A stretch of 64,000 bases of DNA from Lachnospiraceae bacterium (GTDB lineage Bacteria; Bacillota; Clostridia; Lachnospirales; Lachnospiraceae). Positions 6,500 through 53,234 of the stretch are shown one piece after another; within the stretch, counting starts at the first letter, position 1; each line of letters begins with the position of its first letter. The position numbers and the translations under genes were made by a program. The notes below the pieces were generated by a model, which was not told where the DNA came from, made no database searches, and worked only from the letters and a program-made list of their open reading frames with translations. The stretch is taken from NCBI GenBank assembly GCA_024404675.1, contig JAKSPO010000009.1, positions 16,196 to 80,195 of the forward strand, in the 5' to 3' direction.

Positions 6500-7357
6500 A
6501 TGGAGACTGTGAATCACAATTTGCAGAAGAAGGTTGCGCTGATCAATGATTTCAGCGGCTTCGGACGTTGCTCCATCGCTGTGGAGCAGCCGATCATATC
6601 CGTTATGGGAATTCAGTGCTGCCCGGTTCCGACGGCAATTTTCTCCAATCATACCGGCTTTCCGAGCTTCTTTCGTGTGGATTATACACCGCACATCGGA
6701 GAGTATGTTGCGGAGTGGAAGAAACTTGATCTTCGCTTCGAGGGTATCTCGACGGGCTTCCTCGGTTCTGAAGAGCAGATCGAACTGGTGAAGCAGTTTT
6801 TGAAGGATTTTAAGACGGAGCAGACCATCGTAGTGGTAGACCCGGTAATGGGAGACTACGGGCGGCTGTATCCTTCCTATTCGGAGAAGCTTGCAGACAG
6901 AATGCATGAGCTTGTGCCGTATGCGGATGTGCTTCTGCCGAATCTGACAGAGGCGTGTATTCTTACGAAGACTCCTTATAAGGAGCATTTCTCTGAAGAG
7001 GAGCTATATAAGATATGCAGTGCGCTTTCCGCGCTCGGCCCGACGAAGATTGTAATATCCGGAATCAGTAACGAGCATAGCCTTGGTAATTACATCTGGG
7101 AGAGCGGTAAGGAAGCGTCGATTCTGTGGACAGAGAAGATCGGCGGCTATCGTTCCGGCTCCGGTGATGTGTTCTGCGGAATCATTACTGCGGATGTTGT
7201 GAACGGGGTACCGTTTGCGAAGGCAGTTCGAAAGGCGGCTGCATTTATCTCGGATGCAATCCGCGAGTCGCTGAGGCTCGGTCTTCCGCTTACAGACGGA
7301 CTTGCAATTGAGCCGTGTCTATGGAAGCTTGGCTCTGATTATTACGATAAGATCTGA
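6500..7357 (+). CDS. pdxK: pyridoxal/pyridoxine/pyridoxamine kinase (ribokinase superfamily)
   Basis: 285 aa. Contains 'VVDPVMGD.GRLY', 'LLPNLTEA' and 'GSGDVFCG' motifs typical of the PdxK/PdxY type. Confidence 0.8.
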   Translation: METVNHNLQKKVALINDFSGFGRCSIAVEQPIISVMGIQCCPVPTAIFSNHTGFPSFFRVDYTPHIGEYVAEWKKLDLRFEGISTGFLGSEEQIELVKQFLKDFKTEQTIVVVDPVMGDYGRLYPSYSEKLADRMHELVPYADVLLPNLTEACILTKTPYKEHFSEEELYKICSALSALGPTKIVISGISNEHSLGNYIWESGKEASILWTEKIGGYRSGSGDVFCGIITADVVNGVPFAKAVRKAAAFISDAIRESLRLGLPLTDGLAIEPCLWKLGSDYYDKI

Positions 7358-8726: not shown

Positions 8727-8787
8727 CGTTGCATTTCCCGCTTTCACGCGGGTTTGTATAATATGTTTACGTGAAGGAGATTGATTT

Positions 8788-10002
8788 ATGAAGAAAACGC
8801 TGATTTTGTGCACGGCGCTTCTGGTGCTTATGTGCGGTATCATCGGTTGCGGCAAGAAGGACAATACGTCGACCGTGACACCGACCGTAGAAGCAACCCC
8901 GACGGCAACCGAGGCACCTACGGCGACCCCTACCCCCAGTCCTGTTCCGACCCCTCCGGAGGTGTATCTTCGTGAGCTTTTTGCGGAGCACGGAATGAAG
9001 GTTGGTACCTGTCTTACCACACAGATGATCAACAATAAGCTGATGAGTGAGCTGATTGTTGAGCAGTACAGCAGTGTTACCATGGAGAACTCCATGAAGC
9101 CTGATTACATCTTCAACAAAGAGAAGAGTATTGAGGCCGGTGACCTGGTTGTAGAATTCAATACCGATATGGTGCAGATGCTTGACTGGGCCAAGGAGAA
9201 CGAGATGGCTGTTCGCGGTCATACACTTGTATGGTACAGCCAGACCCCTGCGTGGATCTTCTATGAGGATTTTGATCAGTCGAAGGAGCTTGTAAGCCGA
9301 GAGGTTATGCTTGCACGTCTTGACAGCTACATGAAGCAGGTATTTTCGATGCTTGAGGAACAGGGATATTCCGATATCATCTATGCTTACGATGTTGTAA
9401 ACGAAGCAATCATGGAGGATGGAAAGCTTCGTATGCAGATGAACAACTGGTATGCTACAATCGGTGATGACTTCATCCTGCAGGCATTTATCACGGCCAA
9501 CCGTTACGCTCCCGAGAACATTGCTCTGTTCTATAACGACTACAATGAGCAGTTCAAGACGCAGGCACTTGTGGACCTTGTGAAGTCCCTTGTGGACGAG
9601 GATGGGAACTCCCTGATTGACGGTATCGGTTTCCAGGCACACCTCTATACAGAGGATAATCTTACGACCTACTTTAAGACTGTTGATGCCCTTGCCGAGC
9701 TTGGCATTACGGTTGAAATCACCGAGCTTGATGTATCTCTTGGTGCATGGCAGCATGAGAAGAGAGCCAATGAGGAGACGCTTGCGGAGCAGGGTCGTTA
9801 TTACTACAACCTGATTAACGGCATTCTTGAGAGAAAGGATTCCGGAAAGCTGAATATCGATGCGCTTACCTTCTGGGGTGTGTCCGACGGACAGTCCTGG
9901 AGAAAGTCGGCAAGCCCGCTTCTTTATAATTCTGCTTTCATGAAGAAGCCCGCCTTCTACGGCGCAGCACAGCTTAAGGATTTCGCAGGCTTTACGGAAT
10001 AA
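8788..10002 (+). CDS. GH10 endo-1,4-beta-xylanase, lipoprotein
   Basis: 404 aa. Lipobox 'LMCGIIGCGKK', Thr/Pro linker, 'YAYDVVNEA' (acid/base region) and 'ITELDVS' (nucleophile region). Confidence 0.88.
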   Translation: MKKTLILCTALLVLMCGIIGCGKKDNTSTVTPTVEATPTATEAPTATPTPSPVPTPPEVYLRELFAEHGMKVGTCLTTQMINNKLMSELIVEQYSSVTMENSMKPDYIFNKEKSIEAGDLVVEFNTDMVQMLDWAKENEMAVRGHTLVWYSQTPAWIFYEDFDQSKELVSREVMLARLDSYMKQVFSMLEEQGYSDIIYAYDVVNEAIMEDGKLRMQMNNWYATIGDDFILQAFITANRYAPENIALFYNDYNEQFKTQALVDLVKSLVDEDGNSLIDGIGFQAHLYTEDNLTTYFKTVDALAELGITVEITELDVSLGAWQHEKRANEETLAEQGRYYYNLINGILERKDSGKLNIDALTFWGVSDGQSWRKSASPLLYNSAFMKKPAFYGAAQLKDFAGFTE

Positions 10003-10057
10003 GCTTGAGGGACTTCGGATTTTCAGGACAATAAATGGCTTAATTAGCATTTCTAAG

Positions 10058-10100
10058 ACGGACCGATGGTTTGGGTGACTGAATCGTTGGTCCGTTTTTT
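10058..10100 (+). terminator. rho-independent terminator
   Basis: ACGGACCGATG (10058-10068) pairs with CGTTGGTCCGT (10085-10095), 11 bp including G-U pairs, followed by T6. Confidence 0.7.
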
Positions 10101-10168
10101 GCTTCCATAGTGCAGATTTTGATGGAAAATAAAACTGCAATTTTACGCACATGACGGCGGGAAGAAAG

Positions 10169-11581: not shown

Positions 11582-12790
11582 ATGAAAGAGAAATATACCT
11601 ATCGATGCGTATCCGCGCAGGTGCGTTTTCAGGAGAACGCCATCGAGACATTTGCCAAGAATACAGAAATATCCTACTCCTTCCGTGTACAAAGGGACGG
11701 CTATCTCGGTGTACACTATCAGGAAGGGGAGATGACGGACGAGGAGGGCTATCGCCTCGCTACCGAGAATCTGAAGCGGAAGCGCCCGTACAAATACGCA
11801 CCGGAGACCGGTGTGCGCGAGCGTGACAAGTCCGAGCAGGAGATGAGCGACAGAGAGCTTCTTGACTTCGGTCGGGAATTGATTACAACACTCCACGAGA
11901 AGTATCCGGACTTTACCTTAAGCGGCAGTCTTCACAGCAGTCGCGAGGAGTCCGGAATGTATAACGACGCCGGGCTTTCCTATCGAAACAGAGATTGCAC
12001 CTACGGCATGGATATCATATTCAAGCATAAGGACAGTAAGGATCTGATGGACGGCTCCTTCTCCTACGGCTTCCGCAGGCTTGAAAAGGAAAAGGCGTAC
12101 AGAACGGCCGAGAATTATCTTTCGGCTTTTGTAAAGAAAGCGGAGCTTCCGGAGGAACTGATTATTCAGATGCCTGTATACGGCTTCATCGGAAAGCTCG
12201 TAAACCAGCTCGAGGGAGAGAATATGGCGCGCGGCACATCGCTTCTTTCCGGCAGAATCGGTGAGAAGGTATTCTCCGAGAAGCTGACGCTTTATAATGA
12301 CCGCTCCGATCTGACGACCTGGGCTACGCCTTTCTTTGACGGCGAGGGTGTTGTGATGGAGGGCGACAGGCAGGTATTTATCGACAAAGGTGTGGTTGTG
12401 CGGGCATATGCCGACAAGGCAACCGCAGAGCGCTACGGCATCGAGCATACTGCAACGGCCGGAAGAGTATTTGCCGATATTCCGACGAACGGGAATTTCT
12501 CCGGATACATCGAGCGTTCCGAGAAGACTACGAAGGAGCTTCTTCAGGGCAGACTTTCCGTTGTGCCGCTTTACTACGATGGCGGCGGCTTTAACGAGAA
12601 GGGTGATTATGTGATGCCTGTGCAGAGAGCATATCTGTGCGACGGTGAGAAGCTGATCGGTATGCTTCCGGAGTTTACGATGACCTCGAACCTGTTTGAC
12701 ATGTTCGGAGATGACTTCATCGGAATCGGAAGCGATGAGCCGGTATATAATGATAAGTGTATCTTAATACGTATGAAATACGGACATTAA
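11582..12790 (+). CDS. pmbA: PmbA/TldE-family partner protein (no HExxxH)
   Basis: 402 aa, starting 9 nt after tldD. TldD/PmbA-like length and C-terminal Gly-rich region. Lacks the metal-binding motif, as expected for the TldE partner. Confidence 0.65.
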   Translation: MKEKYTYRCVSAQVRFQENAIETFAKNTEISYSFRVQRDGYLGVHYQEGEMTDEEGYRLATENLKRKRPYKYAPETGVRERDKSEQEMSDRELLDFGRELITTLHEKYPDFTLSGSLHSSREESGMYNDAGLSYRNRDCTYGMDIIFKHKDSKDLMDGSFSYGFRRLEKEKAYRTAENYLSAFVKKAELPEELIIQMPVYGFIGKLVNQLEGENMARGTSLLSGRIGEKVFSEKLTLYNDRSDLTTWATPFFDGEGVVMEGDRQVFIDKGVVVRAYADKATAERYGIEHTATAGRVFADIPTNGNFSGYIERSEKTTKELLQGRLSVVPLYYDGGGFNEKGDYVMPVQRAYLCDGEKLIGMLPEFTMTSNLFDMFGDDFIGIGSDEPVYNDKCILIRMKYGH

Positions 12791-12801
12791 AGGAGACGAA
12801 G

Positions 12802-13584
12802 ATGAGACGATTTTGGTTAATGGTTGTAGCGCTTCTGCTTCTGTGGATCGATGTCGGATTCGTGACGGATATCAAGTATCCGGAGTATATATTCGACGAG
12901 GACTACGGCAGAGTGACGCAGAGCTTTGTGATGAATGAGGTGGTCGGAGACCATATGCGGATTGATCTGGTTACCGATATCCCGGGGCTTTTGATCCTCG
13001 CGTGGCTTGTGGTTACCGGCGGTCCCGGCGTTCGCCCGCTTGTTATTGAGGAGCAGGACGGTAAGCGAATCTCGCGTCATATCGGCAAGATGACGAAGCT
13101 ATCCAAAACGCATCTCAGGGATTCGATTCTTGGCTTTCTGCTTAGCATCGCGTCGGCCGGCTGCATCGTTGCGATGCGTATCCTGCCGCTTTATACAAAC
13201 GGCGTTCGCTGCTACGGCGCGGAATATATCATTCATCTGGTGGATATCATTCTTCCGCTTCTTGCAGTATATTATGTGATGATCGAATGGATTGAGCGTA
13301 CCGACCTGCGTACGACGCATCGAGAGACTGACGTAGCGGCACTTCTGATGATGGTTTCGCTGTTCGCCGGCTTCTTCTCTCGCTTTGCGAGACTGTACGG
13401 CTTCCATGGTGTTGATCGCTTTTCGTGGTACATCGAGGGCTTTTTGATGCTCATTGCGCTGTATTCGATGTGGGTCAGCCTGAAGGAAAATGCGAGAAAG
13501 CTTCAGCTCGGAGAGCTCGAATCACTCTACGAGAAGCGTAAGAAAAAGGACGATGATTCGAATTACGTTGACTACTATATGTAA
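12802..13584 (+). CDS. hypothetical polytopic membrane protein
   Basis: AAAGGAG lies 7 nt before the ATG at 12802 (MRRFWLMVVALLLLW...). About 260 aa with at least 6 hydrophobic segments and an acidic/basic C-terminal tail. Sits 12 nt downstream of the pmbA-like stop. Confidence 0.6.
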   Translation: MRRFWLMVVALLLLWIDVGFVTDIKYPEYIFDEDYGRVTQSFVMNEVVGDHMRIDLVTDIPGLLILAWLVVTGGPGVRPLVIEEQDGKRISRHIGKMTKLSKTHLRDSILGFLLSIASAGCIVAMRILPLYTNGVRCYGAEYIIHLVDIILPLLAVYYVMIEWIERTDLRTTHRETDVAALLMMVSLFAGFFSRFARLYGFHGVDRFSWYIEGFLMLIALYSMWVSLKENARKLQLGELESLYEKRKKKDDDSNYVDYYM

Positions 13585-33111: not shown

Positions 33112-33699
33112 ATGGCATTGAAGAAACTGATTCTGATCAGTGGATCACCGTGTGTGGGCAAATCAACGGTGGGGAAGAGAATTTTTGAGCATTATGAGAA
33201 CAGTGCCTTCTGTGACGGTGACTGGTGCTGGTGCGTCAATCCGCTTTCGATAGAGGATACCCGTGTTCGTAACGGGGACAGAAATATGGCATATCTTGTG
33301 TCAAATTATCTGAAATCGGATTTTGAATATGTTGTCTTTGCCTCGGTGGTACTGACCGACCCGACGGCGCGCGAGAATATACTTAATAACATCGATGCAG
33401 AGGATTATGAGGTGTTAAGCTTTCAGCTGACATGTACGGAGGATTATCTGAAGCCGCGTCACGATGAGCGCGGACTTAGTGACGAAGTATCCTTCTGCTG
33501 GCTGCAGCTGCCGCCTTATCCCGGTGAGACGGTCATCGATACGGATGCGAAGACCCCCGACCAGGTGTGCGATGAGATCTGCCGTTTGATCGATTCGAAG
33601 AAGGTTAAGGCGTTGAAAACGGTGAAGAAGACTGCGAGCAGTAAGAAAGCTACTGCGAAGAAGACTACCGCTAAGAAGAGTGCTTCGAAGGCGGAGTAG
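33112..33699 (+). CDS. P-loop NTPase/kinase-like protein with Lys/Ala/Thr-rich C-terminal tail
   Basis: 195 aa. Walker A 'GSPCVGKST'. The last ~35 aa are 'KKVKALKTVKKTASSKKATAKKTTAKKSASKAE'. Confidence 0.55.
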   Translation: MALKKLILISGSPCVGKSTVGKRIFEHYENSAFCDGDWCWCVNPLSIEDTRVRNGDRNMAYLVSNYLKSDFEYVVFASVVLTDPTARENILNNIDAEDYEVLSFQLTCTEDYLKPRHDERGLSDEVSFCWLQLPPYPGETVIDTDAKTPDQVCDEICRLIDSKKVKALKTVKKTASSKKATAKKTTAKKSASKAE

Positions 33700-33717: not shown

Positions 33718-33746
33718 TTGCCAGAATCGGGAATGTGTGTTATAAT
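33718..33746 (+). promoter_or_regulatory. sigma-A-type promoter of the B12-regulated operon
   Basis: TTGCCA (33718-33723), 17-nt spacer, TATAAT (33741-33746), with extended TGT. Confidence 0.65.
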
Positions 33747-33771
33747 CCGAAATAATTGAATATTGATATGG

Positions 33772-33950
33772 AAGATACGGTTTGAAAGTTGTAATAATGA
33801 GTAGATTAATAGGGAATCCGGTTTGAGTCCGGAACAACCGCCATTACTGTATTTGATGAAGAGGGCACGGAATACCATTGGTGCAAGCCGAGAAGGTGTG
33901 CCTTCGCGCAGGAACTGCTATACCATAAGTCAGGAGACCTGCCGTATCTT
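33772..33950 (+). promoter_or_regulatory. cobalamin (B12) riboswitch aptamer
   Basis: P1 is AGATACGG (33773-33780) paired with CCGTATCT (33942-33949). Conserved core 'AATAGGGAATCCGGTTTGAGTCCGGAACAACCGCCATTACTGTA' and B12 box 'AAGTCAGGAGACCTGCC' (33927-33943). Confidence 0.85.
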
Positions 33951-34065
33951 TTTAGGTTTTTCACGCTTGGGCAATGGGAGAGTGCAGCCGGTATATCGTT
34001 ACAGGGCCTTGACACTTTTCCGAGGGAACGTGTTGTGTGCCTGTTTTTGCTTGCGATTTATCAGT

Positions 34066-34098
34066 TGCTCCTCAGTTTTGAGGAGCATTTTTATTTTT
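34066..34098 (+). terminator. riboswitch expression-platform terminator
   Basis: TGCTCCTCA (34066-34074), GTTT loop, TGAGGAGCA (34079-34087), followed by TTTTTATTTTT. Confidence 0.8.
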
Positions 34099-34196
34099 AG
34101 ATATTTGGTCGCTTGCCGTTCAGCCGGCTGGTGACCGGGGCGAACCTGCCCGGAGCTTAGAATCTGTGTTGTGTGCTTTCAAAGAGGAGGAAATGT

Positions 34197-35072
34197 ATGG
34201 CTTACGAACGAAGGCATCCGTCGGTACTTCTTGTCTATTACCTGTCGGTGACCTTGTTTCTGATGTTTACTTCCCATCCCTTACTCCGACTGATTGCTTT
34301 ATGTGGTGCAGTACTTCTGATGCTTTCGACCGGGGAGCGGGCGCCTAAGCTAAGAACGGTACTTTTTCTTAGCGGAATGGTCGTTCTGACGATTATCATA
34401 AATCCGCTTTTTTCGCACCGCGGAGCGACGGAACTGTTCTTTTTCAATAACCGGCCAATTACCCTCGAGGCGATTATGTACGGCGCAGGCGTCGCCTGTC
34501 TGATGCTTTCGGTTATCCTTTGGTTTCACCTTCTTAGCCGGATGCTTGACAGTGAGAAGCTTCTGACGCTTCTTGGCGGGGTGATGCCGAAGACGGCTTT
34601 TCTCGTCTCCTCGGCGTTACGAATGATTCCCTTTCTTCGAAGGCGTGCGGAAGCGATTCAATCGACGGGACGGTCGATGGGACTCTACGGAACCGAAAGT
34701 ATTCCGGAGAAGCTTTCGGGTAGCGGCAAAGCATTCTCGGCGCTTGTGACCAATTCAATGGAGCACGCGATGGATGCGGGTGCTTCGATGAAGGCAAGAG
34801 GCTACGGATCGCATAAAAGAACACATTATAAAAGATATCGTTTTCGGCGGGGTGACCTTGCTGCAATTGTCCTTATTCTTTGTTTGGATGCGGGAATCTC
34901 GGTAGGGCTTGCAAGCGGGGAGGTTTGGTTCACCTACTACCCAAGACTTGCGATGCATACCGGTCCTATGACTAATCTGGTGCTTATTCTCTATGCGCTG
35001 CTTGTGTTACTTGGTCCCGTAGCAGAGTGGAAAGAAAGACTGAAATGGAAATATTACGTGTCGAAAATCTGA
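34197..35072 (+). CDS. ECF transporter T component (CbiQ/EcfT family)
   Basis: GGAGG lies 6 nt before the ATG at 34197. About 290 aa, polytopic, with an 'ALRMIPFLRRRAEAIQSTGRSMG' CbiQ-type coupling-helix region. Confidence 0.75.
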   Translation: MAYERRHPSVLLVYYLSVTLFLMFTSHPLLRLIALCGAVLLMLSTGERAPKLRTVLFLSGMVVLTIIINPLFSHRGATELFFFNNRPITLEAIMYGAGVACLMLSVILWFHLLSRMLDSEKLLTLLGGVMPKTAFLVSSALRMIPFLRRRAEAIQSTGRSMGLYGTESIPEKLSGSGKAFSALVTNSMEHAMDAGASMKARGYGSHKRTHYKRYRFRRGDLAAIVLILCLDAGISVGLASGEVWFTYYPRLAMHTGPMTNLVLILYALLVLLGPVAEWKERLKWKYYVSKI

Positions 35073-36721
35073 CCTTTTCTTATCCGGAAGCGGCTAAGCC
35101 TGCGCTTTCGCAGGTGAGCTTTTCGCTGAAGGAAGGGGAATTCGCAGTTTTGTGCGGGTTGTCGGGCTGTGGCAAGTCAACGCTTTTAAGACTTCTAAAA
35201 AAAGAGCTTGCCCCCTACGGCAGTTGTACGGGAGAGATTACAATCGGTGTTCTGTCCGGGAAGGATAAGGATGCTTCTATGGCTACGGAGACGGCGCTTC
35301 TTCGGCAGAATCCGGACAGCCAGATCGTTACGGATGTTGTGTGGCATGAGCTGGCATTTGCCCTTGAAAATATGGGAACGCCGCAGGAGATTATTCGAAA
35401 GCGTGTGGCGGAGATTGCCACATTCTTCGGAATGGAAGGCTGGTATCATCGTAAGGTGGATGAGCTTTCCGGCGGACAGAAGCAGCTGTTGAATCTGGCT
35501 TCTGTGATGACGCTTGCACCGCAGGTGCTTCTTTTGGACGAGCCGACTGCGCAGCTCGATCCGATTGCAACGGGGGAGTTTATTCATATACTGGAACGGC
35601 TTCATCGGGAGCTTGGCATCACGATTCTGATTGCGGAGCATCACCTCGAGGAGGTGCTGCCGCTTGCGGATCGGGTGCTGATACTCGAGGAGGGAAGACT
35701 TTCCTATGACGGTAGTCCCGCAGCGCTTTCTGACTTCTTTCAAGATAAGGTGGAGCATCCGTTGCTTCCTTCCTTGCCTGCTGCCTCGAGAGTGTTTCGC
35801 GCCCTTTTGGGAGAAGGTGCGCTTCCGATTTCGGTTGCCGACGGGCGAAGCTTTGTAAGAGCGCATTACGGACAAGGCATTCCTAGACTTGAGAGAACTT
35901 CGCATATACCGAAGAACGAGCCGGCAACGGTTTTAAAGGAGATCTGGTTTCGTTACGAAAGAAATGCGCCGGATGTACTTCGTTCGGCAGAGCTTACCAT
36001 ATATCAGGGAGAGCGGCTGTGCCTTCTTGGCGGAAACGGAAGCGGTAAGACAACCCTACTTTCTCTCTTAGCAGGCATCCGTAAGCCCTATGCCGGAAGT
36101 ATCACGCTGTTCGGGCGAAAGCTTTCCGGGTACCGGCCGGAAGAACGGTATCGAAACAACATCGGGTATTTGCCGCAGAATCCGCGTGAGGCCTTCGTCG
36201 GAGAGACAGTGCTTGAGGATTGGAAGCTTGCGTGCCGCGCCATGGAGTATTCCACGGAGGAAGGCGATGCGCAGATTGCAGCGATGGCTGAGAAGCTGTC
36301 GCTTACGGAGCTTCTTCGGCGTCATCCGTCCGACCTGAGCGGCGGAGAGCTACAGCGGGCAGCGCTTGGAAAGGTACTTCTTCTTAAGCCGAGACTTCTT
36401 CTTTTAGATGAGCCGACTAAGGGCATTGACGCCAGGTTTAAGATGGAGCTTACAAAGCTTCTGAAAGCACTTTCGGAAGATGGCATAACAGTTGTTACGG
36501 TAACACATGATGTGGAATTTGCCGCAGAAACCGCGGAGCGTGTCGGACTGGTCTTCGACGGAGAGGTTACCTCCGTACAGGAGACGACGGACTTCTTTAC
36601 GGGCAATACCGTTTATACAACAGAAGCGGCGCGCATCGCGAGAAATTATTACGAAGAAGTGACACGGACGGAGGAGCTGATTGCTTTGTGCCGGTTGAAT
36701 GGACGGGGTGAGCAGGCATGA
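35045..36721 (+). CDS. ECF/ABC transporter ATPase, duplicated (A1-A2 fusion)
   Basis: Two ABC cassettes: Walker A 'GLSGCGKST' with 'LSGGQKQ', and 'GGNGSGKTT' with 'LSGGELQ'. Start is ambiguous (GTG 35027 or ATG 35045) and overlaps the T-component stop. Confidence 0.85.
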   Translation: MEILRVENLTFSYPEAAKPALSQVSFSLKEGEFAVLCGLSGCGKSTLLRLLKKELAPYGSCTGEITIGVLSGKDKDASMATETALLRQNPDSQIVTDVVWHELAFALENMGTPQEIIRKRVAEIATFFGMEGWYHRKVDELSGGQKQLLNLASVMTLAPQVLLLDEPTAQLDPIATGEFIHILERLHRELGITILIAEHHLEEVLPLADRVLILEEGRLSYDGSPAALSDFFQDKVEHPLLPSLPAASRVFRALLGEGALPISVADGRSFVRAHYGQGIPRLERTSHIPKNEPATVLKEIWFRYERNAPDVLRSAELTIYQGERLCLLGGNGSGKTTLLSLLAGIRKPYAGSITLFGRKLSGYRPEERYRNNIGYLPQNPREAFVGETVLEDWKLACRAMEYSTEEGDAQIAAMAEKLSLTELLRRHPSDLSGGELQRAALGKVLLLKPRLLLLDEPTKGIDARFKMELTKLLKALSEDGITVVTVTHDVEFAAETAERVGLVFDGEVTSVQETTDFFTGNTVYTTEAARIARNYYEEVTRTEELIALCRLNGRGEQA

Positions 36722-37407
36722 GAAAGGGAATCACAATCTTTCTCGAGCTGATTCTGATTCCGCTTATCATAATAGGCGGAGCGCTTCTGTTTCGTGAGAA
36801 ATACTATGTCTGGATCGCATTTTGTGTGGCGGTTATTTCGGTCGTTCCGCTTCTTTATAGCTTTGAGAGGCGGGACAGCACGGCGAAGGAGCTGATGGTG
36901 CTAGCGGTATTGATTGCACTGTCGGTTGTCGGTCGCTTCGTGTTCTTTGCACTGCCGGGCTTTAAACCGGTGGCTGCGCTTGTAATCATTGTCGGCGTAT
37001 GGCTCGGCGGTGAGGCAGGCTTTGTCGTTGGTTCGCTGACGGCACTGGTATCCAATTTCTATTTTGGACAGGGTCCGTGGACACCCTTTCAGATGTTTTC
37101 GTGGGGTGTGATCGGACTTGCGGCGGGAATGCTAAGCGGTATGCTTAAAAAGCATCGCCTGCTGCTTTATGGCTTCGGTATCTTGGCGGGCGTCGCCTTC
37201 TCGCTTATGATGGACATCTGGACGGTCCTGTGGGCGGACGGGCAGCTGCTTCCGTCAAAATATAAGGCGGCTCTGCTTGCAGCGCTGCCGGTTACGGTGG
37301 AATACGCCGTATCAAATGTTCTCTTCCTGATGCTCCTTGCGGAGCCTATCGGAAGAAAACTTGACAGACTCAAAAAAAGAGACGGATTATTTCTGTCTCA
37401 AAAATAG
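36718..37407 (+). CDS. ECF transporter S component (predicted cobalamin-specific from riboswitch context)
   Basis: 229 aa with 6 helices, 'NFYFGQGPWTPFQM' motif, ATGA overlap with the ATPase gene. Substrate inferred only from the upstream B12 riboswitch. Confidence 0.7.
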   Translation: MRKGITIFLELILIPLIIIGGALLFREKYYVWIAFCVAVISVVPLLYSFERRDSTAKELMVLAVLIALSVVGRFVFFALPGFKPVAALVIIVGVWLGGEAGFVVGSLTALVSNFYFGQGPWTPFQMFSWGVIGLAAGMLSGMLKKHRLLLYGFGILAGVAFSLMMDIWTVLWADGQLLPSKYKAALLAALPVTVEYAVSNVLFLMLLAEPIGRKLDRLKKRDGLFLSQK

Positions 37408-37480
37408 CGGAGCACATGCGGGCAACCGTAAATCTACTGTGCTTCGTCGGGTAGAAAATACCCGAAGCAATGGAGGTAAC

Positions 37481-38275
37481 ATGAAAAAGTTTCTCACAAT
37501 GATGCTGATGCTTTCCATGCTTCTGTGCCTTTTAGGTGTTGCAAGCGCGGAAGATGGCGGGGATGCGGGCATCAAAGTAACCGTTTCTTTCTCTAAGGAG
37601 GGAAATGCGGTAGTTAATCGTAAGTCCATCAATGTTGTGGATGCAGATAGCGACGGCGCATATACCTTTTATGATGTATTCGTAGCACTTCACGAAACCT
37701 GCTATTCCGGTCAGGACGGCTTTGCGGCATCTCAGAGTGGCTGGGTTACCAAGTTCTGGGGCGTAGAAAATCCGAGCATGGGCTATATTCAGAACAATAC
37801 CGTACAGCCCTACAGCGCAATGGATCCGGTTCAGGCAGGAGATTTCGTCAATGTATTCTTCTATCAGGACACCCTCGGCTATTCCGATCAGTGCACCTTC
37901 TTCAATAAGGTCAGCACGAGCGGTAAGGTTGATACCCCGATTGAACTTAAGGTTTCCGGCGCAGGCTATGATGCAAGCTGGGCATTTGCCGTAAATGGAC
38001 TTGCAGACACCCCGATTAAGGTAAATGGCGCTGCTTCCGAGTACACGACCGACAGTGAGGGTAATGTTACCGTTACCTTTAACGAGCCCGGTACCTATGT
38101 CCTTAGCGTATCCGGCACCAATCTTGTGCCGTCTACCTGCACGGTAATTGTTACCGCAGGCAACGATCCCGCACCGCCGACCGGTGATGTAACCTCTATG
38201 CTGATTCTTTGCATGGTTGCTGCATTGGCTATGGCCGGTATGATTGTGGTTGTCAGAAGACGTAACGCTTTATAA
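37481..38275 (+). CDS. cell-surface DUF4430 (transcobalamin beta-domain-like) protein with LPXTG-like C-terminal sorting signal
   Basis: GGAGG RBS before the ATG at 37481. Signal peptide MKKFLTMMLMLSMLLCLLGVASA. 'SGWVTKFWGVEN...AGDFVNVFFY' resembles the DUF4430 signature. C-terminus is 'APPTGD' + hydrophobic helix + 'RRRNAL'. Confidence 0.65.
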   Translation: MKKFLTMMLMLSMLLCLLGVASAEDGGDAGIKVTVSFSKEGNAVVNRKSINVVDADSDGAYTFYDVFVALHETCYSGQDGFAASQSGWVTKFWGVENPSMGYIQNNTVQPYSAMDPVQAGDFVNVFFYQDTLGYSDQCTFFNKVSTSGKVDTPIELKVSGAGYDASWAFAVNGLADTPIKVNGAASEYTTDSEGNVTVTFNEPGTYVLSVSGTNLVPSTCTVIVTAGNDPAPPTGDVTSMLILCMVAALAMAGMIVVVRRRNAL

Positions 38276-39891
38276 TGCGCAGACTGTTTCAAAAACTGAG
38301 CTATCTCCTGTGCGTACTTTTCGTTCTTACGATGGTTGGAACGGGGCACGCACAGGTGTTAAAGAAGAGCCGGCAGGAGGAGGCAATCCTTGGCCGGCTT
38401 TTCGGCATGTCCGGGGCAATGGATGCGCAGACCTGGCTTGACCGCGCATCGGAGCAGTATAAAAGCCTTCCGCTCTCCTGGTACTATCCGGCGATCAGAC
38501 AGAGCGGCGAGGCATATGATTATACGGCCTTTGGCGACTTTTATGAGGCTTATGTAAAAGAGGCCGGGGACAATATGGCGGCAGCCTCCTGGCTGAACGC
38601 ACAGCTATTCCTGTATTCTCTCGGGCGGGAGCTTCCGGACCGGGAGACCGTGCTTTCCCGTATCAGTGAGCGAAGTATTATGAGCCTTATCTACGGGCTG
38701 CATCTGTCGAACAACACCGGAGAGGAATATGTAAGAATAGATTCGGTGCTTTCGTTACAGTGCCCGGACGGCGGCTTTGGCTTTGGCGGCGAGAACGGAG
38801 ACGTGGATGTAACGGCGATGATGCTTGCGGCACTTGCACCGCATCAAAAGGATGCCTTGGTTTCGGCAGCTGTGGAGCGTGCCCTTACCTTTCTTTCTAA
38901 TCGGCAGCTCATGGACGGTGGCTTCTTCACCGCGGGAAGCTATAACAGTGAGAGTATCTCTGTTGTCATCATCGCCCTTTCTTCGCTTGGCATCGACTGT
39001 GAAACGGACAGCCGTTTTCAGAAGGGAGAGGGCCTTCTCGGAGCCTTGTTACGTTTTTACAGCGAGGAGGGCGGCTTTCGTCATACAAGCGACGGAAATG
39101 TGAATGAGCTTGCGACGGCCGAAGGGCTTTGTGCGCTCGTTGCGATGCGTAGAAATGCTTCCGGTCAGAAGAGCCTGTATCTGATGGATCCGCTTCCGAA
39201 GGAGCCTTCACACGAAGAGGGGCCGACATCCGACGTTGAGAAGCCGACACCCGGTGCGGACCGGCCTACAGAGGGACCCATGGAGAAGCCCGCGGAGGAA
39301 TCGAATACGGTTGCGAAGACGCCTGCCTTATCCGGCTACAAGCTTTATGCTTCGGTGGGAATCATCCTTGCGGGAGCGCTATTACTTATCGTTTTGGCAC
39401 TTCGGAAAAGGCTTCGCCGAGGAAATGTGCTTACCATATTCATTCTTATGGCAGCAGCGCTTGCCTTTGTACTTCTTACGAATTTTGAAAGTGTGGATAA
39501 GCACTATTCTACGGACAAATCACCCGTAGACTTCGTAGGTGAGGTAACGCTTTCGATACGATGCGATACCGTAGCCGGGAAGAAGGGTGCACCGAAGGAG
39601 GAGTATATGCTTTCTGTAGGTACGTACCGGATCGGGAGCGAAACGACAGTCTTTGAGGTGCTCTCTGAGGCCTGCAGACAGAATCGTATCGCATTGTCCT
39701 ACACGAGTGTGGGCGGTATTTATATAAAGGGCATCGGAGAGCTTTATGAGTTTGATTTCGGCGATCTGTCCGGCTGGATGTACGCAGTCAACGGAACCTT
39801 TCCGTCCGTTGGCGCGGGCGATTACCGCCTAAGCCCCGGCGACAGCATCGAGTTTCGATATACCTGCTCCTTGGGAAACGATCTGCAGTGA
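38275..39891 (+). CDS. prenyltransferase/terpene-cyclase-like alpha/alpha-toroid domain + 2 TM helices + C-terminal DUF4430 domain
   Basis: 538 aa. Signal peptide (..VGTGHA/QV). Repeats 'LQCPDGGFGF', 'RQLMDGGFF' and 'YSEEGGFRH'. Pro/Glu linker. TM pair 'LYASVGIILAGALLLIVLAL-RKRLRRGN-VLTIFILMAAALAFVLLTNF'. C-terminal 'LSGWMYAVNGTFPSVGAGDYRLSPGDSIEFRY' matches the DUF4430 signature. Confidence 0.7.
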   Translation: MRRLFQKLSYLLCVLFVLTMVGTGHAQVLKKSRQEEAILGRLFGMSGAMDAQTWLDRASEQYKSLPLSWYYPAIRQSGEAYDYTAFGDFYEAYVKEAGDNMAAASWLNAQLFLYSLGRELPDRETVLSRISERSIMSLIYGLHLSNNTGEEYVRIDSVLSLQCPDGGFGFGGENGDVDVTAMMLAALAPHQKDALVSAAVERALTFLSNRQLMDGGFFTAGSYNSESISVVIIALSSLGIDCETDSRFQKGEGLLGALLRFYSEEGGFRHTSDGNVNELATAEGLCALVAMRRNASGQKSLYLMDPLPKEPSHEEGPTSDVEKPTPGADRPTEGPMEKPAEESNTVAKTPALSGYKLYASVGIILAGALLLIVLALRKRLRRGNVLTIFILMAAALAFVLLTNFESVDKHYSTDKSPVDFVGEVTLSIRCDTVAGKKGAPKEEYMLSVGTYRIGSETTVFEVLSEACRQNRIALSYTSVGGIYIKGIGELYEFDFGDLSGWMYAVNGTFPSVGAGDYRLSPGDSIEFRYTCSLGNDLQ

Positions 39892-42122: not shown

Positions 42123-42584
42123 ATGAAAAAATGTGAGTATGAAATCAGAGTTATGACGATGGATGATTACAAGGCAGTGTATGCGCTTTGGCAGAGCATT
42201 CACGGCTTCGGTATTCGTTCAATCGACGATTCGGAGGAGGGCGTCAGAAGATTTATCGACAGAAATCCGAATACCAGTATGGTAGCGGTTTGCGAGGGTC
42301 GAATCATCGGCGCGATTCTGTGCGGTCATGACGGACGCCGGGGAACCTTCTACCACGTATGCGTGCAGGAGGAGTATCGTAAGCAGGGTATCGGTAAAGC
42401 AATGGCGGTTGCCTGCATGCGTGCACTGAAGGAGGAGCATATCAACAAGGCAACGCTTGTTGCCTTCACGAGCAACTCACTCGGAAACCAGTTCTGGAAG
42501 GGCGCAGGCTGGACGTATCGTGAGGATCTGAATTACTATGATTTTACGTTAAATGAGGCCAATATTACGGAATTCAACAAGTAA
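42123..42584 (+). CDS. GNAT family N-acetyltransferase
   Basis: 153 aa with acetyl-CoA binding motif 'RKQGIGKAMAVA'. Confidence 0.75.
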   Translation: MKKCEYEIRVMTMDDYKAVYALWQSIHGFGIRSIDDSEEGVRRFIDRNPNTSMVAVCEGRIIGAILCGHDGRRGTFYHVCVQEEYRKQGIGKAMAVACMRALKEEHINKATLVAFTSNSLGNQFWKGAGWTYREDLNYYDFTLNEANITEFNK

Positions 42585-42619
42585 TGAATGCAATTTGTAA
42601 CCTGAGTGGGGAGTATAAC

Positions 42620-44125
42620 ATGCGAGGTAAGTTTCTTGCCGGTGTGCTTCTTGTGCTGACGATGCTTTTAATCGGTTGCGGCAAGAAGACAGAGTTCAAG
42701 CCGGCGGATGATTCGACAATCGAAGAGCCTACGGACACCCCGATGCCCGAGCCGACACCGCAGCCGATTACGGAGGAGTATGCGGGGCGTATTTCCTATG
42801 TCTACGGGAACAGTATGGTTTGGGATGTGTCGGGAAAGCTGCACTTTGAAGCCATCGAGCGAGGCACCGGGAAGGACGGCGACTGGAGCATTCCGGCGCT
42901 GCTTTTGGGGTATGAAGCGGAAAGTACGGCCGGGGAAGAGCTGTTTCGGATTACGACCGAGCAGTCTACGGAGGGTGTATCCTTCACCCTTCGGATTGGA
43001 ACGATGGAAGGCTTGCTACTGACAATTCCCGCGGGGGAAGCGTGGGATTTTACGCTTTACCATGACGGCAACCGCTACACATTTGTCCAGAACGGTTTCA
43101 CGCTTCTTTCCATCGCAGCGGATGCCGAGTTTATGACGGTGATGGTAGGAAGCGAGCAGAACGCGACGGCTTACCGTTACCCGGTCAGACAGTTTGCGGT
43201 AAGACCGCTTCCGCAGGGCAATATCGTAAGTGCTGAGAGGAGCAGATTGCTCCCGACGCTTCAGACGCTTACGGATATTTATGACGGCAAATACCTTGGT
43301 TCGATTGTAGACTCCGTGCGAAAGAATGCACGCGAGGAGTGGCCTGCCGATTATGTGCAGATTACGAAGGAGCGAATCAACGCAAACGGCGGCTGGACGG
43401 AGTATAATGTCATCTATAAGGCCAATACCGTTGTGGTGGACCGTACCGACAGCAGTGCACCGAGCACAATCACGGAGTATGCCTTCAATGAGCTCTCGGA
43501 GGGCATCCCGAACGTGGAGTATTACATTTATGAGGGACTTTCTGAGAAGCTTCGTTACACCTTTGACGGTGCTGCACTGGACCGCTACCGCTTGGCAATC
43601 TACGAGGAAGAATCGGCAGAGCTTAGGCGTATGGAGAGTATCGGACTCGGGAAGATTCCGCTTCTTTTAGAGTGGACCGACTTCGGCTTTGTGGAGCGCG
43701 GCATCGTGGAGGCTTCGGAAGAAGAGCAGGAATATGTTAGATTCCATTATGCCGACGGAACGGTATACGGTGACGTGTGGGCAGTTTACGCGGACGGAAC
43801 CAGACCGGTTACGGTGTATATCGATAGACTCGGCGCGAAGGATTGCTTTTACGCGGACGGGCGCATCATACCGGGAACGTATCCGAACCGTGAGCTTGTC
43901 AGAAGAAGCTACGACAAATACGGTGTGCTGACCGAGGAAACCAATGCCGCCGGTGTGATACGATATAGCTATACCTTCAGCGATTTCGCCTATGGCGGGG
44001 CGGACGATACGATTCGCCATGAGTGGCAGAAGCTGATGCCTTATCTGGAGAAGGCGGACAAAAAGCCTGCGGAGGAGCCTGACGACGGGGAGAACGAGAT
44101 TCACGAGGAGTTTTTAAGTGAGTAG
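42620..44125 (+). CDS. hypothetical lipoprotein
   Basis: GGGGAG RBS before the ATG at 42620. Lipobox 'LTMLLIGCGKK' and Pro/Thr/Glu linker. About 500 aa with no recognisable catalytic motif. Confidence 0.6.
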   Translation: MRGKFLAGVLLVLTMLLIGCGKKTEFKPADDSTIEEPTDTPMPEPTPQPITEEYAGRISYVYGNSMVWDVSGKLHFEAIERGTGKDGDWSIPALLLGYEAESTAGEELFRITTEQSTEGVSFTLRIGTMEGLLLTIPAGEAWDFTLYHDGNRYTFVQNGFTLLSIAADAEFMTVMVGSEQNATAYRYPVRQFAVRPLPQGNIVSAERSRLLPTLQTLTDIYDGKYLGSIVDSVRKNAREEWPADYVQITKERINANGGWTEYNVIYKANTVVVDRTDSSAPSTITEYAFNELSEGIPNVEYYIYEGLSEKLRYTFDGAALDRYRLAIYEEESAELRRMESIGLGKIPLLLEWTDFGFVERGIVEASEEEQEYVRFHYADGTVYGDVWAVYADGTRPVTVYIDRLGAKDCFYADGRIIPGTYPNRELVRRSYDKYGVLTEETNAAGVIRYSYTFSDFAYGGADDTIRHEWQKLMPYLEKADKKPAEEPDDGENEIHEEFLSE

Positions 44126-51878: not shown

Positions 51879-53234
51879 ATGTTTAGAAAAAAATTGATGA
51901 AACCGCTTCTTCTGGTTTGTATGGGAGCAATGCTTCTTACCGGGGTAACGGGTTGCGGAAACAGCTCGGACGGTACGAGCAATTCAAAGACCGGGAAAGG
52001 CGAAGAAAGTGACAAGAAGGGTTCCCTGTTCGAAAAGGAGGACCCGGATGCGGAGGGCAGGCTGACGCTTGCCGACGGAGACCTTAGCTATACGGATTAC
52101 CCGGATTATAACGCAAAGGGAGAATATGCCGGAAACCTTCGTGTATATACGAATCATACCGATAGGGATATCGAGCTTCTTATCACGAACGAAGGCAATG
52201 AGACGCCGCTTCCGATGTTTCTTCCGGCCGGCGGAACTACCTGCCGCTATTTTGGTAACGCGGTGAAGCTTGGGATTACCGATGTTGCCGGCTTCAAAAT
52301 CGTTGAGGTGCCGTATGCCTACGCGGGAGGAGAGGCACATGACGCCGCGGAAGAATACAAGCTTATGCTCTGGAAGACGAGGTCCTCTCTGGAAATGACG
52401 ATTGAGTATGTCGGAAACGATACGGAGCCGTTTGATTGTATGGGCAACTACTATGTCGTTTTTTATGACGCCGACGGACAGGTGCTTTGTGTAAATCATG
52501 TCACCTATACCGATTTCCGAAACACGAAAAAGGGCGACCGTACCGCGGGCTTTTCGACCTTCTTCCGCTGGGCGGACAAGACCTATGACCATGTTGAGGT
52601 ATTCTATCAGCCCGGTGTGAAATTCTACAACGCTACCGACTACAAGGATGCAATCACGATGAGTGAGCTTGCTGTTTATAAGCGATCCAACACTGAACTG
52701 GAAGCGCTTCTTGCGGTGAAGAACACTACCGATGAGCCGTTGTCCGGAAGCTTTTCCATAATCGGATACGATAAGGAGGGAAATGTTGCTGCAACAGCTG
52801 CCGTAGTGGATACGCTTGTTCTGGAAGCAGGTGCCGACACATATATCACGGAGCGAATGAGCCTGTGGCAGGGTTACGACAGCGCAGACTGTATTGACCA
52901 TCTGGAATTCCGTCTGAATTATGTTAGCAGGGTGGAAAAGGATTCAAAACTGTACTATTATGACCTGACCGATAAGCTGACCTGGGGTGCCCCAGAGAAG
53001 GATCCATACATAAACTCCTGGCACATTGATATGAAGAACAATGCGGACGAGCAGGCGGACGTACGCGGCTGCTTCCTGTTCTATGATGCGGCCGGGAATC
53101 TGATCGGCGGCAAATCCTCCAGAACCAGTCTGAAAGCGGGAGAGGATACCGAATTCCGCGTCCTCCCGGACGAGGAGCTTGTAGGCGATGCCGACCATTG
53201 CGAATGCTTCATCCGGGCTACGAAGTCTCATTAA
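51879..53234 (+). CDS. hypothetical lipoprotein
   Basis: 451 aa. Lipobox 'LTGVTGCGNSS'. AAGGAG RBS. No known motif. Confidence 0.6.
   Translation: MFRKKLMKPLLLVCMGAMLLTGVTGCGNSSDGTSNSKTGKGEESDKKGSLFEKEDPDAEGRLTLADGDLSYTDYPDYNAKGEYAGNLRVYTNHTDRDIELLITNEGNETPLPMFLPAGGTTCRYFGNAVKLGITDVAGFKIVEVPYAYAGGEAHDAAEEYKLMLWKTRSSLEMTIEYVGNDTEPFDCMGNYYVVFYDADGQVLCVNHVTYTDFRNTKKGDRTAGFSTFFRWADKTYDHVEVFYQPGVKFYNATDYKDAITMSELAVYKRSNTELEALLAVKNTTDEPLSGSFSIIGYDKEGNVAATAAVVDTLVLEAGADTYITERMSLWQGYDSADCIDHLEFRLNYVSRVEKDSKLYYYDLTDKLTWGAPEKDPYINSWHIDMKNNADEQADVRGCFLFYDAAGNLIGGKSSRTSLKAGEDTEFRVLPDEELVGDADHCECFIRATKSH

Follow-up and report, generated by a model that had tools for sequence, protein, structure and literature searches.

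A riboswitch-headed ECF operon of a Lachnospiraceae bacterium encodes a probable corrinoid importer and two predicted surface accessory proteins

Introduction

The energy-coupling factor (ECF) transporter ECF-CbrT of L. delbrueckii (6FNP) transports both cobalamin and cobinamide in proteoliposomes, and hemin is no competitor (Santos et al. 2018, PMC5997447). In 2007, Burroughs, Balaji, Iyer and Aravind (PMC1796856) defined the SLBB superfamily and described bacterial fusions of a toroid to an SLBB domain, with Gram-positive anchors and paralogue pairs, in operons that hold a second extracellular protein and CbiO/CbiQ genes in hosts without B12 biosynthesis; they proposed B12 scavenging for these proteins and a Gram-positive origin of animal transcobalamin. 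In L. sakei, an operon for an S component, a fused ATPase (AA'), a T component and transcobalamin beta-like and alpha-like proteins was assigned to heme uptake (Verplaetse et al., 10.1101/864751). Here we analyse a five-gene operon with a cobalamin riboswitch at its head, located at positions 33718 to 39891 of a 64 kb stretch of Lachnospiraceae DNA (contig JAKSPO010000009.1; the whole stretch is called the window). Genes 1 to 3 encode an ECF transporter and genes 4 and 5 two predicted surface proteins, and an earlier reading of the letters (the original prediction) had taken the five together for a corrinoid capture-and-import system.

Surface capture of scarce cobamides by Gram-positive gut and rumen bacteria is an acknowledged gap, and a review of September 2026 calls the Gram-positive surface cobamide binders 'entirely uncharacterized'. 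We conclude that the operon very probably imports corrinoids. The fuller reading, that it is a dedicated group I importer of the ECF-CbrT type with two co-expressed surface accessory proteins, repressed by cobalamin through a terminating riboswitch, we consider probable.

Results

A cobalamin aptamer and a terminator precede the operon

A search of the whole window with Rfam placed the cobalamin riboswitch aptamer RF00174 at 33761..33960 on the forward strand, which carries all features of the operon. The score was 90.4 bits (E 4.6e-21) against a gathering score of 31.5 bits, the match ran over the full model (1-189/189), and it was the sole Rfam match there. The B12 box, AAGUCAGGAGACCUGCC, lies at 33927..33943, exactly the coordinates originally predicted for a canonical aptamer, and aligns to the RF00174 consensus AGCCAGGAGACCuGCC. 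About 105 nt 3' of the aptamer stands an intrinsic-terminator-like element (34066..34098), also as foreseen, which is the presumed expression platform: a G+C-rich hairpin of 9 bp with a GTTT loop (34066-34087) is followed by the T-run TTTTTATTTTT ending at 34098, and the hairpin is present in both the minimum free energy (MFE) fold and the centroid fold of the leader. Upstream, a promoter-like site of sigma-70 type (33718..33746; -35 TTGCCA, 17-nt spacer, TG-extended -10 TATAAT) has 11 of 12 consensus matches and ends 15 nt 5' of the aptamer start. Consensus scans of this kind yield about the same number of promoter and terminator sites in shuffled as in real sequence, so the weight rests on the position of the two elements and not on their existence; what answers to the strong promoter of the original prediction is this promoter-like site, a match to a pattern only.

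The arrangement is shared by related loci, which carry homologous aptamers in the equivalent position. Of 57 related leaders, 45 have a hairpin with a T-run 3' of the aptamer, typically at a distance of 75-135 nt, which argues that attenuation is the conserved mode of control; the stems differ in sequence, covarying, while their position is kept. The leader holds a genuine cobalamin aptamer with a terminator downstream, and ligand-dependent control is predicted. At the other end of the operon, a consensus scan of the window found no terminator 3' of gene 5.

Genes 1 to 3 encode a dedicated ECF transporter with a CbrT-like S component

Five same-strand open reading frames (ORFs) follow the leader, and the same starts were obtained when genes were called independently on another contig. 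NCBI lists identical proteins, which come from a Lachnospiraceae metagenome-assembled genome (MAG), as MCQ2422679-83 and names them, in order, EcfT, ABC protein, ECF S component, hypothetical protein and DUF4430 protein. The genes are tightly linked, as had been anticipated: the T and AA' genes overlap by 28 nt and the AA' and S genes by 4 nt, a 73-nt gap with a GGAGG ribosome-binding site separates the S gene from gene 4, and genes 4 and 5 share 1 nt in TAATG. The component assignments of the original prediction for the first three genes also held in Pfam and NCBIfam. Gene 1 (34197..35072, 291 aa; MCQ2422679.1) is an ECF T component of the EcfT/CbiQ family (Pfam CbiQ PF02361, 34.4 bits, cut-off 25), and gene 2 (35045..36721, 558 aa) is a fused A1-A2 ECF ATPase, matched by Pfam ABC_tran over two stretches and by NCBIfam TIGR04520 ECF_ATPase_1 at 340.2 bits (cut-off 315). 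Gene 3 (36718..37407, 229 aa) encodes the S component (PF07155, 35.5 bits, cut-off 26.7). A T component, two ATPase domains and an S component in one operon define a group I, that is, dedicated, ECF transporter.

We compared gene 3 with proteins of known structure. Its sole sequence match in the PDB was CbrT (6FNP_A, E 3.5e-8, near full length), and a profile of 46 orthologues again ranked CbrT first (4.9e-18), followed by 4HZU_S (4e-4) and RibU (0.057). Residues 57-223 align to CbrT 10-177. The protein departs from the compact CbrT form of about 180 residues and six helices: its N-terminal ~50 residues (36718-36870) hold two extra hydrophobic segments by hydropathy, conserved in the 46 orthologues, and one may speculate that this extension is a docking site for the membrane hairpin of gene 5. 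Among S components CbrT is the closest characterised relative of gene 3, and this kinship points to cobalamin and cobinamide as the probable substrates. The RF00174 aptamer and the CbrT-like S component support the riboswitch control and the dedicated ECF transporter of the original prediction.

Gene 5 encodes a membrane-tethered transcobalamin-like protein

The last gene of the operon (gene 5; 38275..39891, 538 aa) was examined with Pfam, AlphaFold2 (AF2), Foldseek and hydropathy. A signal peptide (38275-38355) is followed by an alpha/alpha toroid (38407-39165; helical over residues 45-297 of the AF2 model), a disordered Pro/Glu-rich linker (39166-39336; AF2 spacer residues 322-352), a transmembrane hairpin (39337-39486; AF2 helices 355-376 and 382-401, with hydropathy in agreement) and a DUF4430/SLBB beta-grasp domain (39532-39888). 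The last was matched by PF14478 over residues 457-530 with 67.1 bits (cut-off 23.8, E 1.8e-18), and residues 150-290 of the toroid gave sub-threshold Prenyltrans and SQHop_cyclase repeats; Pfam matches were limited to DUF4430, Prenyltrans and SQHop, and the eukaryotic Cobalamin_bind family was unmatched. The toroid and DUF4430 domains of the original prediction thus stood, and its transmembrane segment needs correction to a two-helix hairpin. The loop between the helices, RKRLRRG, is cytoplasmic by the positive-inside rule, which places both globular domains outside the cell.

The AF2 model, built from 49 homologues, has a pLDDT confidence score of 87.5. When it was searched against the PDB with Foldseek, the top 15 matches were bovine, rat and human transcobalamin, intrinsic factor and haptocorrin (E 6e-9 to 2e-6), in alignments that span both domains at 11-14% identity; lower matches, to terpene cyclases and prenyltransferases, covered the toroid only. 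The C-terminal domain was matched by the isolated transcobalamin beta domain 5NO0 with a template modelling (TM) score of 0.77 and by 3U7Z, a Ruminococcus gnavus DUF4430 structure, with a TM score of 0.7. An HMMER profile of the gene 5 SLBB domain run against PDB sequences missed both, which were reached by Pfam and the fold search. The two-domain matches identify gene 5 as a bacterial two-domain transcobalamin-like protein, in which, on the model, the membrane hairpin would substitute for the inter-domain linker of transcobalamin. In its layout gene 5 resembles an alpha protein with a C-terminal anchor fused to a beta protein with an N-terminal anchor. From the fold and the riboswitch linkage, we consider it likely that gene 5 binds a corrinoid.

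Several conserved positions were seen along the way. Toroid residues 176-182 (38800-38820, GDVDVTAM) form a near-invariant DVDVTAM motif, with D178, T180 and M182 invariant. Class II terpene cyclases, drimenyl diphosphate synthase among them, have their DVDDT (DxDD) motif at the aligned position; in gene 5 the motif may be left over from an ancestor that was an enzyme, or it may contact the ligand. H270 in the toroid (39082-39084) and C430 at the start of the SLBB domain (39562-39564) are invariant in the 49 homologues, and Cys514, the partner of C430, is 90% conserved, although the window protein has Ala there. H270 or C430 could be an axial cobalt ligand, like the His of transcobalamin or the Cys of BtuM. 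A degenerate sortase signal ahead of the first membrane helix was also considered and rejected, as the 49 homologues have no conserved xPxTG there.

Gene 4 encodes a predicted wall-anchored partner

The gene immediately upstream (gene 4; 37481..38275, 264 aa) encodes a surface protein predicted to be wall-anchored, as judged from an AF2 model (pLDDT 91), alignments and motif counts. Its signal peptide (MKKFLT...ASA-ED; 37481-37552) leads into an N-domain (37562-37885) modelled in the order strand-strand-helix-four strands, with an EF-hand-like loop, DADSDGAYTFYD, at residues 54-65 (37640-37675) between strand 2 and the helix. A transthyretin/Ig-like beta-sandwich (37886-38164) follows, and the chain closes with a sorting-signal-like tail (38171-38272) composed of APPTG, the hydrophobic helix MLILCMVAALAMAGMIVVV and RRRN. 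The combination of a signal peptide with an xPxTG motif, a hydrophobic helix and a basic tail is that of a sortase-type surface protein. Homologues end in comparable tails (SPKTG, NPKTG, VPATG), with xPxTG in 27 of 60 and a weak Gram_pos_anchor match in 11 of 60. In 42 of 46 gene 4 orthologues the loop has the EF-hand/dockerin-type calcium-binding consensus DxDxDGxLTxxD, and this conservation suggests a metal-dependent step. Relatives also gave weak EF-hand_1, Dockerin_1 and lanmodulin matches and, in 21 of 60, weak matches to TcaA_3rd_4th (PF22820).

The original prediction had called gene 4 a sortase-signal DUF4430 protein. The signal peptide and the sorting-type tail agree with the first half of that label; the second was not confirmed, as PF14478 matched neither the window protein nor any of 60 family members (0/60), even at E<=5, and no Pfam model covers the N-domain. 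One gene 4 alignment, compared with the gene 5 SLBB domain in hhalign, gave a probability of 63% or 20-22% with about 80 columns in register; three other gene 4 alignments gave 1-2%, and reversed or wrong-domain controls at most 5%. The strand and helix order predicted for the N-domain equals that of the gene 5 SLBB domain in the AF2 models. A whole-chain Foldseek search, swamped by the C-terminal sandwich, returned generic Ig-like matches only and no SLBB, and an HMMER profile of the N-domain had no match in the PDB. This is a large family (1,946 clusters at 50% identity), whose module is tandemly duplicated in some loci (L005, 6763-7983) and repeated 2-5 times in proteins that reach about 3,000 aa (P0127-P0154) and also have SLH, Big_2, cadherin-like and beta-propeller domains. 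Whether gene 4 binds a corrinoid is close to an even call, leaning slightly towards no.

Upstream of gene 4, inside the last part of the S gene, a pattern scan found an internal promoter-like site (TTGACA-18-GATTAT; 37361..37390, 10 of 12 matches) that could give genes 4 and 5 transcription independent of the riboswitch. The site is of note because the gene 4-gene 5 pair forms a separate riboswitch-controlled unit in other genomes.

The surface pair, ECF genes and B12 riboswitches are linked across Clostridia

Relatives of gene 5 are widespread. More than 584 full-length homologues were found, and relatives occur in at least 560 species-level genomes, all of them Clostridia MAGs or isolates and mostly from rumen or gut, with hosts among the Lachnospiraceae, Oscillospiraceae, Ruminococcus and Acutalibacteraceae. 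We compared 80 related Clostridia loci, 72 of which had enough upstream sequence for riboswitch counts; all were scanned with a covariance model from nine aptamers, and negatives were rechecked with Rfam. In 74 of the 80, the next gene on the 5' side of gene 5 is a gene 4 homologue, and 3 of the remaining 6 end at a contig edge. The ECF genes T, AA' and S stand next to the pair in 69 of 80 loci, 13 in the window order (T-AA'-S-gene 4-gene 5) and 56 with the surface pair first (gene 4-gene 5-T-AA'-S). A comparison of genomes for riboswitch co-occurrence had originally been proposed; here about 57-60 of the 72 loci have a B12-class riboswitch ahead of their first gene, mostly RF00174 and in three cases RF01689, the AdoCbl-II variant.

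The placement of the riboswitches is informative. In five loci (L009, L032, L041, L045, L061) a second riboswitch lies between gene 5 and the T gene, besides the one ahead of the gene 4-gene 5 pair, and in five others (L027, L031, L035, L058, L078) a riboswitch is followed by genes 4 and 5 only, with no ECF or other transporter within several kb downstream. Riboswitches directly ahead of gene 4, the second copies and the transporter-less loci together suggest that the pair is tied to B12 status itself and is not a passenger of the transporter. The evolutionary link between the gene 4-gene 5 pair, the ECF genes and B12 riboswitches across Clostridia is tight, and it is because of this comparison that the corrinoid capture-and-import reading is well supported.

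Three details of individual loci were recorded. The short AdoCbl-II RF01689 heads the cluster in L049 (866-945), L071 (935-1010) and L073 (3036-3111), from Ruminococcus/Clostridia. The two riboswitches of L009 are at 6784-6932 and 9574-9714, the gene 5/T-gene copy being the shorter. In a related Ruminococcus cluster (L038, 12309-12598), group II intron domains RF02001 and RF01998 lie directly 3' of the S gene.

Surroundings of the operon

A search of the whole window found no cob/cbi genes and no recognisable B12-dependent enzymes; apart from the operon it holds glycoside hydrolases, pyridoxal phosphate (PLP) enzymes, transporters and housekeeping genes. Immediately upstream, adjoining the riboswitch promoter and outside riboswitch control, lies the gene for a 195-aa P-loop (AAA_18-like) protein whose C-terminal tail is rich in Lys and Ala (33112-33699). 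ORFs with no Pfam match at E<=1e-5 lie at 42584-44125 (513 aa), 51879-53234 (451 aa), 12757-13584 (275 aa) and, on the reverse strand, 8767-10152 (461 aa), the last overlapping an opposite-strand ORF at 8788-10002.

Discussion

Proposed mechanism

The mechanism we propose leans on what is established about cobalamin riboswitches, ECF transporters and transcobalamin. In B12-replete cells the aptamer would bind the coenzyme, the terminator would form and transcription would stop at about 34098; when intracellular cobalamin is low, the terminator would be bypassed and the operon read through. At the membrane surface gene 5 would grip a corrinoid in the manner of transcobalamin, with the toroid on one side and the SLBB domain on the other, and deliver it to the CbrT-like S component, which the T-AA' module would topple with ATP, releasing the corrinoid in the cytoplasm. 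Gene 4, fixed in the wall by sortase, would probably act as an outer capture or relay element or as a scaffold, possibly in a Ca2+-dependent manner, and is the least certain step. Ligand binding and hand-off by the surface proteins are what we infer from these parts. The original claim of a complete capture-and-import system is kept in part: a surface-exposed transcobalamin-like gene 5 fits it, and the role of gene 4 as a B12 binder had been drawn from the unconfirmed DUF4430 label.

Weighing the alternatives

Several observations weigh against the corrinoid reading or parts of it. In the leader, neither the MFE nor the centroid fold gives a convincing antiterminator pairing, the fold energy is ordinary (z = -1.06 and -1.31), and the B12 box pairs, by eye, at most 5 bp with the 5' arm of the terminator; about 12 of the 72 assessable loci have no riboswitch. 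The domain orientation in the gene 5 model is not rigid-body superposable on transcobalamin, with a root-mean-square deviation of 12-14 A. As had been stated at the outset and as the 2026 review concurs, the accessory proteins are biochemically uncharacterised: literature searches gave no biochemistry of them and no binding or transport data for this clade. In the one experimental study that deals with a related operon, lsa1836-1840 of L. sakei, the phenotype concerned heme uptake and not B12 (10.1101/864751). That study is the ground for supposing that the present system imports heme or another non-corrin tetrapyrrole: supplied with micromolar hemin, the L. sakei operon deletion mutant built up less heme, an effect that complementation and overexpression reversed, and a toroid/SLBB cleft could in principle accommodate another macrocycle. 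However, the whole operon was deleted in that work, B12 was untested there and the phenotype appeared only at micromolar heme (10.1101/864751), whereas here a cobalamin riboswitch controls the cluster, as it does in about 80% of relatives, and the nearest match of the S component is CbrT, for whose transport hemin does not compete (PMC5997447). We regard heme import as improbable.

Regulation by B12 also suits a cobalt transporter of the CbiMNQO kind, to which the match of gene 1 to CbiQ and of gene 2 to the cbiO subfamily TIGR01166 would point. Cobalt transporters belong to B12 regulons, and B12 riboswitches commonly control cobalt uptake. Yet the operon has no CbiM or CbiN, its S component matches vitamin-type S families and CbrT and not CbiM, gene 1 reaches only 26.9 bits with the CbiQ equivalog TIGR02454 (cut-off 111.8), and the accessory proteins include a B12-carrier fold. 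With CbiM and CbiN absent and the S component CbrT-like, we rejected this explanation, whose probability is very small indeed. The division of labour among the parts deserves more weight. The system could be a corrinoid importer in which gene 4, and perhaps gene 5, takes no part in hand-off and serves as a surface reservoir or in competitive sequestration, or in which gene 4 is structural or adhesive and positions gene 5. The occurrence of the gene 4 family in tandem copies and inside giant multidomain surface proteins of the SLH, Big_2 and cadherin-like kind suggests that it may be a generic surface module, and PDB sequence, profile, fold and Pfam searches gave it no demonstrable similarity to known corrinoid binders, two points that also count against the capture role proposed above. 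In some genomes the gene 4-gene 5 pair has no adjacent transporter genes, and Bacteroides BtuJ is reported to be an extracellular reservoir. On the other side, the strict adjacency of genes 4 and 5 (74/80), with riboswitches directly ahead of gene 4, argues that the function of gene 4 is tied to B12 status, and reservoir and relay roles can coexist. We consider an importer of corrinoids with no hand-off by gene 4 unlikely, and prefer corrinoid capture by the surface proteins with delivery to the ECF transporter.

A bolder proposal goes further: that gene 4 is an unmodelled Ca2+-loop corrinoid-binding module, that with gene 5 it forms a two-tier relay through the Gram-positive wall to the ECF transporter, and that animal transcobalamin, intrinsic factor and haptocorrin were acquired from the bacterial lineage which gene 5 represents. 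Taken whole, this is doubtful. If it is true, Firmicutes would have in the gene 4-gene 5 relay their own equivalent of the BtuG/H/J relay of Bacteroides and of the Isd heme relay.

Significance

The central idea is not new: it was predicted in 2007 (PMC1796856), and the present locus is one ordinary representative of a widespread Clostridia operon type. What the operon type, found in at least 560 Clostridia genomes, offers is expressible candidates, namely a full two-domain bacterial transcobalamin homologue and a paired wall protein family without a Pfam model. Together with the riboswitch and the CbrT-like ECF transporter, the membrane-tethered homologue and its unmodelled partner make a well-defined test case. 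If cobamide binding were shown, it would explain Firmicutes-Bacteroidota competition for B12, settle the B12-versus-heme question from the L. sakei study and bear on the proposed bacterial origin of animal B12 carriers.

Comparison with known systems

The transporter is most like ECF-CbrT (PMC5997447), with which it shares a homologous S component, an ECF T component, two ATPase domains and, by inference, the substrate class. The L. delbrueckii CbrT is a group II S component of 182 aa that uses a shared general ECF module and has no accessory proteins; here, by contrast, the operon brings its own dedicated module with fused ATPases, the S component carries an N-terminal extension, and a riboswitch stands over all of these genes and those of the two surface proteins. 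The surface proteins resemble those described in PMC1796856 in having a toroid N-terminal to an SLBB domain, signal peptides, Gram-positive anchors, a second extracellular partner and linkage to CbiO/CbiQ genes. That paper has 0 occurrences of the word 'riboswitch', its passages on these proteins make no mention of a membrane hairpin between the domains, and the partner here, gene 4, is not a clear SLBB paralogue as in the pairs described there.

Gene 5 has the domain order of the eukaryotic carriers transcobalamin, intrinsic factor and haptocorrin (2BB6, 2PMV, 4KKI), an alpha6/alpha6 toroid followed by a beta-grasp domain. The eukaryotic proteins are soluble and join their domains by a flexible linker, whereas gene 5 has a Pro/Glu-rich spacer and a two-helix membrane anchor, and by sequence its toroid is nearer to terpene-cyclase/prenyltransferase repeats than to the eukaryotic carriers. 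The L. sakei lsa1836-1840 operon, compared by its description, has the same list of components, and both of its surface proteins carry export signals; its alpha and beta parts are separate proteins, where here they are fused through the hairpin, and the description mentions no riboswitch and no equivalent of gene 4.

Bacteroides BtuG, BtuH and BtuJ (PMC8941943, PMC13616437) are likewise surface binders encoded beside a riboswitch-controlled B12 transporter, and the analogy of role to BtuG and BtuH drawn in the original prediction is reasonable as a functional resemblance only: the folds and anchors are unrelated, the Bacteroides proteins being outer-membrane lipoproteins that feed the TonB-dependent BtuB. 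No BtuG/H/J homologue was found for gene 4 or gene 5 among PDB sequence matches or top fold matches, and homology was rejected. The Isd heme relay has sortase-anchored wall proteins with NEAT domains, which hand a tetrapyrrole on to a type II ABC importer in the membrane. The likeness to Isd is one of concept only and purely analogical; here the corresponding parts would be played by toroid/SLBB proteins and an ECF transporter.

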